A DNA stretch of 10,116 nucleotides from the IMG/VR virus record IMGVR_UViG_2667527965_000001; one strand, written 5' to 3'. Each line of letters starts with the position of its first letter. Within the stretch, counting starts at the first letter, position 1. Position numbers and translations under genes: made by a program. This document shows, piece after piece, positions 959-5,772 of this stretch. Below the pieces are notes generated by a model that saw only the letters and a list, made by a program, of their open reading frames with translations, did not search any database and had not been told where the DNA came from. The DNA is from a virus. Lineage: Duplodnaviria > Heunggongvirae > Uroviricota > Caudoviricetes.

Positions 959-1069
959 TTATGCTCCGTCATGAATTTCCTCAGGTGTTGCGTCATCGTC
1001 CACTTCGAATACATCCTCAAAATCTCCACCAGCTATTCCCGTTTCAATAATAATTTTGAACTTTCGCAT
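959..1069 (-). CDS. Small acidic hypothetical protein, 36 aa (MRKFKIIIETGIAGGDFEDVFEVDDDATPEEIHDGA)
   Basis: ATG at 1067-1069 (minus strand), stop at 959-961. Upstream AGGAGG (1093-1098) is separated from the ATG by a GC hairpin (1077-1092) plus 7 nt, so the effective spacing is good only if the hairpin forms. Confidence 0.3.
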   Translation of the reverse strand: MRKFKIIIETGIAGGDFEDVFEVDDDATPEEIHDGA

Positions 1070-1076
1070 TTCACTA

Positions 1077-1092
1077 CCGCCCTTTCGGGCGG
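1077..1092. other. Perfect GC hairpin: CCGCCC, loop TTTC, GGGCGG (GNRA-type GAAA loop on the minus strand)
   Basis: Direct reading. There is no U-tract on either side, so it is not a canonical intrinsic terminator. It sits between a strong SD and the start codon of the 959-1069 ORF. Confidence 0.5.
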
Positions 1093-1331
1093 CCTCCTGA
1101 TGTTCTGAGGGTGCAGAAATCCATCCGGTTAAGGATTAAATTTTATTTACAGAACTGAATTTAATTATTCAGATATACGTATCTGTAGCCTTACGAATCT
1201 ACTCACTGGATGCCTCTTTCATAAAAATAATCCAGTGGGTTTTATCGTTTTTTCCCTGTTCGTTGACAGATAACAGGTTTTCTGTCTGTCAGTGCCAGAA
1301 TCTGGCTTACCGGTATTTGCGTTTCATTCCA

Positions 1332-5356: not shown

Positions 5357-5414
5357 TTTCTGGTGACGTTTGGCGGTATCAGTTTTACTCCGTGACTGCT
5401 CTGCCGCCCTTTTT
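5357..5414 (+). ncRNA. dicF: DicF small RNA (antisense inhibitor of ftsZ translation)
   Basis: TTTCTGGTGACGTTTGGCGGTATCAGTTTTACTCCGTGACTGCTCTGCCGCCCTTTTT matches the DicF sequence as recalled, including the GGCGG/CCGCC terminator stem and U-tract. It sits between ydfC and dicB as in the dicB operon. Confidence 0.8.
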
Positions 5415-5507
5415 AAAGTGAATTTTGTGATGTGGTGAATGCGGCTGAGCGCACGCGGAACAGTTAAAACCAAAAACAGTGTTATGGGTGGATTCTCTGT
5501 ATCCGGC

Positions 5508-5528
5508 GTTAATTGTTAACTGGTTAAC
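5508..5528. promoter_or_regulatory. Three direct GTTAA(T/C) repeats at 7-8 bp spacing, followed by a CCTGG-N5-CCAGG inverted repeat (5533-5547), just upstream of the dicB RBS
   Basis: Direct reading. The half-site resembles the GTTAGA operator half-site. No function is known to me. Confidence 0.25.
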
Positions 5529-5583
5529 GTCACCTGGAGGCACCAGGCACTGCATCACAAAATTCATTGTTGAGGACGCGATA

Positions 5584-5772
5584 ATGAAAACGTTATTACC
5601 AAACGTTAATACGTCTGAAGGTTGTTTTGAAATTGGTGTCACTATCAGTAACCCAGTATTTACTGAAGATGCCATTAACAAGAGAAAACAAGAACGGGAG
5701 CTATTAAATAAAATATGCATTGTTTCAATGCTGGCTCGTTTACGTCTGATGCCAAAAGGATGTGCACAATGA
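5584..5772 (+). CDS. dicB: DicB cell-division inhibitor, 62 aa
   Basis: MKTLLPNVNTSEGCFEIGVTISNPVFTEDAINKRKQERELLNKICIVSMLARLRLMPKGCAQ matches DicB as recalled. GAGGA SD 7 nt upstream. The ORF track begins at an upstream non-ATG codon. Confidence 0.85.
   Translation: MKTLLPNVNTSEGCFEIGVTISNPVFTEDAINKRKQERELLNKICIVSMLARLRLMPKGCAQ

Follow-up and report, generated by a model that had tools for sequence, protein, structure and literature searches.

The closest described counterparts of the element analysed here are translation initiation regions (TIRs) of phage T4 in which an mRNA hairpin lies between the Shine–Dalgarno (SD) sequence and the start codon; this hairpin cuts the SD–AUG distance from 22 to 5 nt in gene 38 (PMC3014915; PMC7297116) and from 27 to 11 nt in gene 25 (PMC3014915), and destabilization of the stem lowers translation of both genes (PMC3014915; PMC7297116). 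The gene 25 TIR, located at the 26–25 junction, is treated in a review (PMC3014915) that draws on Nivinskas 1999 and Malys and Nivinskas 2009. A leader of comparable layout is present on the minus strand of a 10,116-nt stretch of viral DNA (IMG/VR record IMGVR_UViG_2667527965_000001; the whole stretch is hereafter called the window), where AGGAGG, a hairpin, and a short spacer precede a 36-codon open reading frame (ORF) that had been singled out in an initial annotation. The leader resembles the T4 gene 38 site in having a strong SD about 22 nt away and a hairpin in the gap (22 to 5 nt in T4, 23 to 7 nt here), whereas it shares no sequence homology with that site and is portable, preceding many unrelated genes instead of a single one; moreover, the T4 site has experimental support, whereas the leader is known from sequence alone. 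With gene 25, as described in that review, it has in common the intercistronic position in a polycistronic phage mRNA, the hairpin-shortened SD–AUG distance, and the conservation in close relatives; however, the T4 case is one orthologous junction of T-even phages, whereas the present leader occurs at non-orthologous junctions and in both early operons. The TIRs of Escherichia coli thrS, rpsA, and rpmE (cited in PMC7297116) likewise tolerate stable stem-loops that arrange the initiation elements, although these three are autoregulatory operators on the chromosome to which the genes' own products bind, and no such regulator is indicated here. A split TIR is of a kind already known from T4, and the portable multi-gene cassette is the added twist.

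In the window, the minus strand reads ...CATC AGGAGG CCGCCC GAAA GGGCGG TAGTGAA ATG CGA AAG... Direct reading agrees with the initial annotation in the positions of the AGGAGG, the GC stem with its GAAA loop, the following 7 nt, and the ATG, all of which are collected in Table 1 together with their predicted energies. Layout and folding also support its statement that the hairpin shortens the SD-to-ATG distance, which is 23 nt in the linear sequence and falls to 7 nt on folding. The hairpin is present in both the minimum free energy and the centroid structures of its 141-nt context (z = −2.8 for the whole 141-nt stretch), and the combination of an SD, a perfect hairpin of at least 6 bp, and a start codon was observed once, as against 0.02 expected per shuffled window. 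Four sequence-level features of a hairpin-bridged TIR are wholly or partly present, namely, a strong SD at a distance of more than 15 nt, a stable hairpin in the gap, a folded spacing of about 5–11 nt, and conservation.

The leader is almost certainly a conserved modular cassette. In a distant BLAST search of positions 880–1180 against phages, the matches were confined to the non-coding leader up to the ATG, and a leader of about 80–100 nt proved to be common to unrelated genes, with the similarity stopping at the start codon. Scanning viral contigs with a 15-mer seed located outside the hairpin (TAATCCTTAACCGGA) gave at least 123 listed copies, 109 of which, selected by the seed as they are, contain the SD and the hairpin; the leader is thus found in more than 100 viral contigs, and 2,683 of the 5,426 complete E. 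coli genomes also contain it, a single genome having it at up to 9 places. In the set of species-representative genomes, the exact SD and hairpin in the leader context are restricted to Shigella flexneri, Citrobacter braakii, and one E. coli-like contig of a metagenome-assembled genome; three other matches to the SD–hairpin sequence in this set are ordinary terminators. The GTDB representative genome of E. coli has no exact match to the leader, and the Rac prophage of strain K-12 is without it. Neither a literature search nor Rfam yielded a description of the cassette, and the lack of any Rfam 15 match at positions 1070–1172 argues against a known RNA family.

The cassette is arranged, in order, as a three-frame stop, an AT-rich segment, an invariant core, GGAGGG/CCCTC, a linker (AGAACATC), AGGAGG, the hairpin, and an A-rich spacer, and six or more different genes on the upstream side come to an end at its start (cTGAATAATTAA). 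Across the 109 listed copies, the SD is AGGAGG in 89, AGGAGA in 16, AGGAGT in 2, and GGGAG[GA] in 2; the hairpin has the consensus sequence in 66, the variants being mostly C-to-U changes in the 5′ arm. The loop also occurs as GGCA, AAAA, and TAAA, so that a GNRA loop is not conserved. In most other copies, the weak stem at the 5′ edge (H0) is kept through a G·U pair. The upstream SD-like motif has the consensus GGAGGG, of which the window carries a G-to-T variant (GGATGG). Eight loci use this upstream SD directly, as GGAGG–7 nt–ATG (CCGGAGGTATATCAATG), with no hairpin module and with a protein starting MSNAQKVINAEKY...; since the upstream half is found without the hairpin module, the cassette seems to comprise two or more separable modules. 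At other loci, the upstream half is followed by a genuine terminator (GGGCCGCGAAAGCGGCCCTTTTTTTT). As a separate observation, CCCTC can pair alternatively with the upstream GGAGGG or with the real AGGAGG, giving a potential two-state switch, and the predicted accessibility of the SD ranges from 0.0 to 0.75 between contexts (0.24–0.75 in all but one). The leader occurs in both the early-left (ead/Ea22) and the early-right (post-replication) operons of lambdoid prophages. One 84.7-kb viral contig (IMGVR_UViG_2913112809_000002) carries two copies, and a prophage with the leader in both operons could thereby gain a site for recombination within itself or a means of co-regulation.

Lambdoid prophages of Escherichia and Shigella carry the leader before many different genes, at least six of them unrelated to one another. 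The families of these genes include DUF7167 (the one represented in the window), a DUF551-type family (MTELTK...), DUF4014, and Phage_antitermQ (antiterminator Q), as well as two or three further families with no Pfam match (MAELTK..., MQEIKE...). In the listed copies, the distance from hairpin to start codon is 7 nt in 64, 9 nt in 19, 6 nt in 8, and 11 nt in 4, with 5 ambiguous between 2 and 8 nt, and the linear distance from AGGAGG to the start codon in the other copies is 22–27 nt. The spacers of five gene families show practically no affinity for the anti-SD sequence (−1.2 kcal/mol or weaker) and contain no alternative SD, which leaves the AGGAGG beyond the stem as the sole available SD as long as the stem is closed. 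The junction before the Q gene has both the longest spacing (11 nt) and a GGAG of its own. The pair probability of the stem is 0.92–1.0 in 11 of 13 downstream contexts.

Within the DUF7167-linked copies, nucleotide diversity (π) is 0.053 in the leader, whereas the adjacent gene has 0.127 at third-codon positions and 0.151 at fourfold sites (2.5–3 times lower in the leader), although the numbers of segregating sites are similar between the two. Constraint on the SD (0.026) and the 3′ arm (0.022) equals that on non-synonymous sites, and the 5′ arm, the loop, and the spacer are less constrained than these two. Changes in the stem are mostly C to U, preserving G·U pairs on the sense strand. At pair 4, a 5′-arm C-to-U change is found in 53 contigs of the whole viral collection (about 50 in the leader context, with at least five combinations of flanks), every one giving G·U, and a 3′-arm change in a single contig unrelated to the leader; at pair 5, leader copies show three 5′-arm changes and no 3′-arm change. 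For both pairs together, the ratio of 5′-arm to 3′-arm changes among leader copies is about 54 : 0, in a tally of copies rather than of independent events. This pattern is consistent with pairing of the sense strand at the RNA level, and part of the asymmetry could come from a role of the 3′ arm that is sequence-specific.

From these observations we infer, as the most likely reading and with a probability of roughly one half, that the leader acts as a hairpin-bridged, or split, TIR, as the initial annotation had suggested by analogy with T4 gene 38. The hairpin would stay folded, looping out 16 nt and thereby bringing the AGGAGG to 6–9 nt from the AUG, and the 30S subunit would then use an SD located 22–25 nt away in the linear sequence. 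The main argument for this mechanism is its geometry, the shortening from 22–25 to 6–9 nt lying between those of T4 genes 38 and 25. Layout, geometry, and conservation thus speak for structure-dependent initiation in the manner of gene 38, at the level of sequence comparison, and a repressive role of the same hairpin, taken up below, is still a live competitor. The shared cassette probably doubles as a patch of homology for the exchange of gene modules.

Several points weigh against the split TIR. Some natural copies have badly weakened stems of −3 to −5 kcal/mol, and a few loci have the hairpin without any start codon after it. The base of the stem adjoins the SD with a gap of 0 nt, and the last G of the SD can make a seventh (G·U) pair, which may hinder pairing with the anti-SD. 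At pair 3, 30 copies carry an A, among which only 7 have the compensating U (G–C to A–U), all from one lineage and therefore probably a single event, whereas the uncompensated A·C is commoner (23 copies). Covariation is nil, with 96% of cells paired, a value not above that of column shuffles; it is, however, uninformative here, because the copies are too similar and their divergence too low. Strand-biased mutation could contribute in part to the excess of C-to-U changes, and seed-based sampling biases the diversity estimates near the seed. The copy in the window itself has a mutated decoy SD and a dead downstream gene. Finally, the 3′ arm GGGCGG plus the following U would, if opened, be an SD of −6.6 kcal/mol at ideal spacing.

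Since the 3′ arm would thus be a decent SD once the stem is opened, the hairpin could repress instead: the true SD would be the GGGCGG(U) of the 3′ arm, locked by the anti-SD-like CCGCCC, and the AGGAGG would serve as a standby site for the 30S subunit. In favour of this scheme, which we regard as unlikely, are the energy of the 3′ arm and first spacer base against the 16S 3′ end at a canonical spacing, the status of the 3′ arm as the most conserved segment of the leader next to a tolerant 5′ arm, and the lack of any change in leader copies at the two 3′-arm positions tested (G2′ and G3′). However, a stem of −12.4 kcal/mol would be open only about 1e-9 of the time, implying near-zero expression even of antiterminator Q; a perfect AGGAGG exactly at the base of the stem would be unneeded for mere standby; and the 5′-arm changes, by preserving G·U pairs, leave the stem closed instead of adjusting how readily it opens.

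The mosaic joints of lambdoid phages are known in the literature on modular evolution for their conserved boundary or 'linker' sequences, and the cassette resembles these in being a short conserved intergenic sequence between unrelated modules. It might accordingly be a recombination linker only, a shared patch of homology with which the SD and hairpin are carried along, having no role in translation. The similarity indeed breaks exactly at the cassette edges (upstream at the three-frame stop, downstream at the ATG or at the 3′ end of the hairpin), the mosaic joints are sharp, including one with cargo 13 nt past the stem, and the same cassette is present in early-left and early-right operons and repeatedly within single genomes. 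In contrast to such linkers, however, the cassette has a defined internal anatomy of three-frame stop, decoy SD, and SD–hairpin, which suggests a function in expression and not homology alone. The five families without a spacer SD depend on the AGGAGG of the cassette, and their start codons fall in a narrow band of 6–9 nt after the stem; the SD and stem are constrained like non-synonymous sites. We therefore consider it quite improbable that the cassette is nothing but a linker; a linker role is compatible with the split TIR and does not exclude it. Beside these joints, the cargo that begins 13 nt past the hairpin and runs to about 1,500 nt past it in E. coli and Citrobacter prophages is convergent and consists of a 184-aa multi-pass membrane protein with a 97- or 310-aa protein, which may be moron or defence cargo, and at two loci a 228-aa ORF, QueH-like by eye without a family search, starts 62 nt past the hairpin.

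A role in mRNA processing or stability is less probable again. RNase E and protective 5′ stem-loops provide a general basis for such a role, in which an AU-rich entry site for RNase E would be combined with a hairpin protecting the downstream 5′ end or blocking the upstream 3′ end in long early transcripts. An AU-rich single-stranded stretch does lie upstream of two stems, and the hairpin is very stable and, lacking a U-tract, is no terminator. This role leaves unexplained, however, why a perfect SD stands at the base of the stem and why the distance of 6–9 nt is fixed.

That the hairpin is a transcription signal, either an intrinsic terminator or a boxB-like N-utilization (nut) site, can be practically dismissed: the GC-rich stem, the GAAA loop, and the early operon of a lambdoid prophage would suit such a signal, and the same hairpin followed by a T-run is an ordinary terminator in unrelated bacteria, whereas here it runs into TAGTGAAATG on the minus strand and into CCTCCTGATG on the plus strand, with no T-run (U-tract in the RNA) on either, is absent from the terminator scan, lies after the replication genes and far from the early promoters, has no boxA-like match nearby on the minus strand (near 1100–1200), and consists of a 6-bp stem with a variable 4-nt loop, the boxB of lambda having a 5-bp stem and a pentaloop. 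Some further identities were also rejected. The leader is not a coding N-terminal extension, as the frame differs between downstream genes and most copies have an in-frame TAA before the ATG. Termination–reinitiation from a small ORF ending at the TAA or TAG past the hairpin is excluded by the lack of a start codon in frame, and a target of DicF by a duplex energy no better than that of shuffled leaders (p = 0.41). No sigma-70 promoter was found inside the cassette, either by scan or by eye.

If the leader is a split TIR, it would be the first outside T-even phages to be common to many unrelated genes, and it would explain how newly recombined lambdoid genes, including antiterminator Q and moron-like cargo, continue to be expressed; it would also be a compact natural part for context-independent translation. 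Going one step further, we tentatively raise the idea, with the odds against it, that the cassette is a previously undescribed standardized gene junction of about 100 nt, which ends any upstream gene, starts any downstream gene independently of context, and provides homology for exchange. If that is true, about half of the complete E. coli genomes contain a natural insulated, plug-and-play ribosome-binding site. The ORF to which attention was first drawn matters little by itself, being a dead gene in a decaying cryptic prophage.

This ORF had been taken for a small gene in its own right; we are highly confident that it is instead a truncated DUF7167 (PF23768, phrog_1997) pseudogene. Beyond the TAA, the frame is open for 23 more codons up to a TGA (889–887), reading ...HDGA*EIFFNYCNYSYHEIKDDEEEQSG*, which makes the 36-codon ORF a truncated gene of 60 codons, and the NCBI annotation pipeline PGAP labels 887–1069 as 'DUF7167 family protein; internal stop', that is, a pseudogene. 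The stop-repaired 60-aa product matches PF23768 with E = 8e-14 and 51.9 bits, and the 36-aa fragment alone with 29.9 bits, both above the cut-off of 24.4, and the phrog_1997 profile matches an intact relative with E = 9e-31; by hidden Markov model score the product is thus a DUF7167 member, although the intact full-length frame (about 57–60 aa) is lacking. Codon 37 reads AAA (Lys) in 51 of the 63 copies sampled from viral contigs and TAA in 10, from which the allele of the window is seen to be a private nonsense mutation. An AlphaFold model of an intact member (pLDDT 77) has a β–β–α–β–α fold, and the stop at codon 37 takes away the end of helix 1 and strand 3.

The extreme acidity that had been noted for the C-terminal half is real (10 Asp or Glu among the final 23 residues), and the proposal built on it, a small acidic regulator or DNA mimic, is very improbable for the 36-aa peptide. 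The peptide has its start codon behind a plausible ribosome-binding site, hundreds of genomes carry the truncated allele, which is fixed in them with 100% conservation, and small acidic phage proteins can act as inhibitors. Against this, relatives are intact at 60 aa in most copies, the homology continues past the stop, the predicted fold loses a strand through the truncation, and two or three neighbouring genes have similar private nonsense mutations, indicating decay. A Foldseek search of the PDB with the DUF7167 model gave no significant match (best E = 0.34), the inhibitors p56 and T7 Gp2 appearing just at non-significant E values of about 0.9–2, so that no link to DNA mimics, by structure or by family, reached significance. 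Structure and sequence searches likewise returned no significant relative of characterized function, and the literature searched has no mention of 'DUF7167' or of the hairpin sequence. The functional peptide was therefore rejected in favour of a nonsense-truncated DUF7167 gene, and any peptide made from the ORF would be a by-product and not a conserved product. As a side observation, the family profile gave weak matches to uL23 among PDB sequences (E about 0.004, residues 10–41 against 20–50), a resemblance unsupported by the fold search and probably due to chance.

The family and the leader are separable, because a DUF7167 gene of a Klebsiella phage has no hairpin leader and starts from an ordinary GGAGG–7 nt–ATG overlapping the upstream stop, and the leader stands before other genes. 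Conservation of the hairpin in related prophages without the ORF had been named beforehand as a pattern that would speak against a translated ORF; half of that pattern is what was found, as the hairpin is conserved independently of the 36-codon ORF, and conversely the ORF family exists without the hairpin. Database entries of DUF7167 with 84–87 aa are N-terminal extensions through the leader from an in-frame GTG, and in one such extended allele, which counts 139 member sequences, AGG has replaced the true ATG. Start-site callers are evidently misled by the non-canonical SD spacing, and a split TIR would explain why genes are mis-started or extended through the leader, as in the 87-aa entries.

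The stop in the DUF7167 gene is not the only lesion in this region. The next gene downstream, of the phrog_519 family, is inactivated by a TAG, intact copies numbering 47 as against 10 with the TAG, and the gene after it is frameshifted according to PGAP. On the upstream side, the class I S-adenosylmethionine (SAM)-dependent methyltransferase gene may also be truncated, its TAA being followed by a frame that is still open, with no intact copy available to compare it with. The DUF7167 stop, the phrog_519 TAG, the frameshifted gene, and the methyltransferase TAA together indicate that this part of the prophage is decaying.

Table 1 Features of the leader, the adjacent genes, and the RNA matches in the window.
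Feature	Positions	Strand	Remarks
Shine–Dalgarno sequence AGGAGG	1093–1098	minus	−9.7 kcal/mol against the 16S 3′ end
Hairpin CCGCCC-GAAA-GGGCGG	1077–1092	minus	perfect 6 bp; −12.4 kcal/mol folded alone
Single-stranded spacer TAGTGAA	1070–1076	minus	7 nt, without SD of its own; −0.4 kcal/mol against the anti-SD
Cassette 5′ edge TGAATAATTAA	1161–1171	minus	three-frame stop; in other prophages, point at which unrelated upstream genes end
Weak AT-rich stem CTGAAT/ATTCAG (H0)	1155–1172	minus	94.9% of cells paired, no covariation
Invariant cassette core TAATCCTTAACCGGA	1124–1138	minus	search seed
Upstream SD-like GGATGG with CCCTC (1111–1107)	1107–1126	minus	possible decoy-SD stem (HP1)
36-codon ORF, N-terminal DUF7167 fragment	959–1069	minus	ATG 1069–1067; premature TAA 961–959
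Whole DUF7167 (PF23768, phrog_1997) pseudogene	887–1069	minus	60 codons; stop at codon 37 (AAA to TAA)
Next gene downstream (phrog_519 family), inactivated	718–909	minus	TGG to TAG at 786–784
Upstream class I SAM-dependent methyltransferase	1332–1688	minus	118 aa; TAA 1332–1334, frame open to 1243
DicF sRNA gene	5358–5409	plus	76.7 bits
STnc100-like match	5407–5616	plus	34 bits (gathering score 47)

The window represents a cryptic lambdoid prophage of the Qin/Kim type from E. coli. Prophages of E. coli W, ATCC 8739, IAI39, 042, and many other genomes are 100% identical to positions 600–1800, and the matching region of strain W includes ydfU, rem, hokD, relBE, flxA, dicC, dicA, ydfABC, dicB, and ydfD. 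An Rfam 15 scan of the window at E ≤ 1 returned just the DicF small RNA (sRNA) gene and, directly after it, a weak, sub-threshold STnc100-like match. The PasD sRNAs of prophages have been linked to STnc100 (2026 preprint); an sRNA of this Pas/STnc100 type was rejected as the identity of the leader, the loci of that preprint being different ones. The 1.2-kb stretch, despite its three nonsense-bearing genes, is 100% identical in hundreds of E. coli genomes of different lineages and in Shigella flexneri, which indicates that this defective prophage segment is old, fixed, and strikingly uniform.

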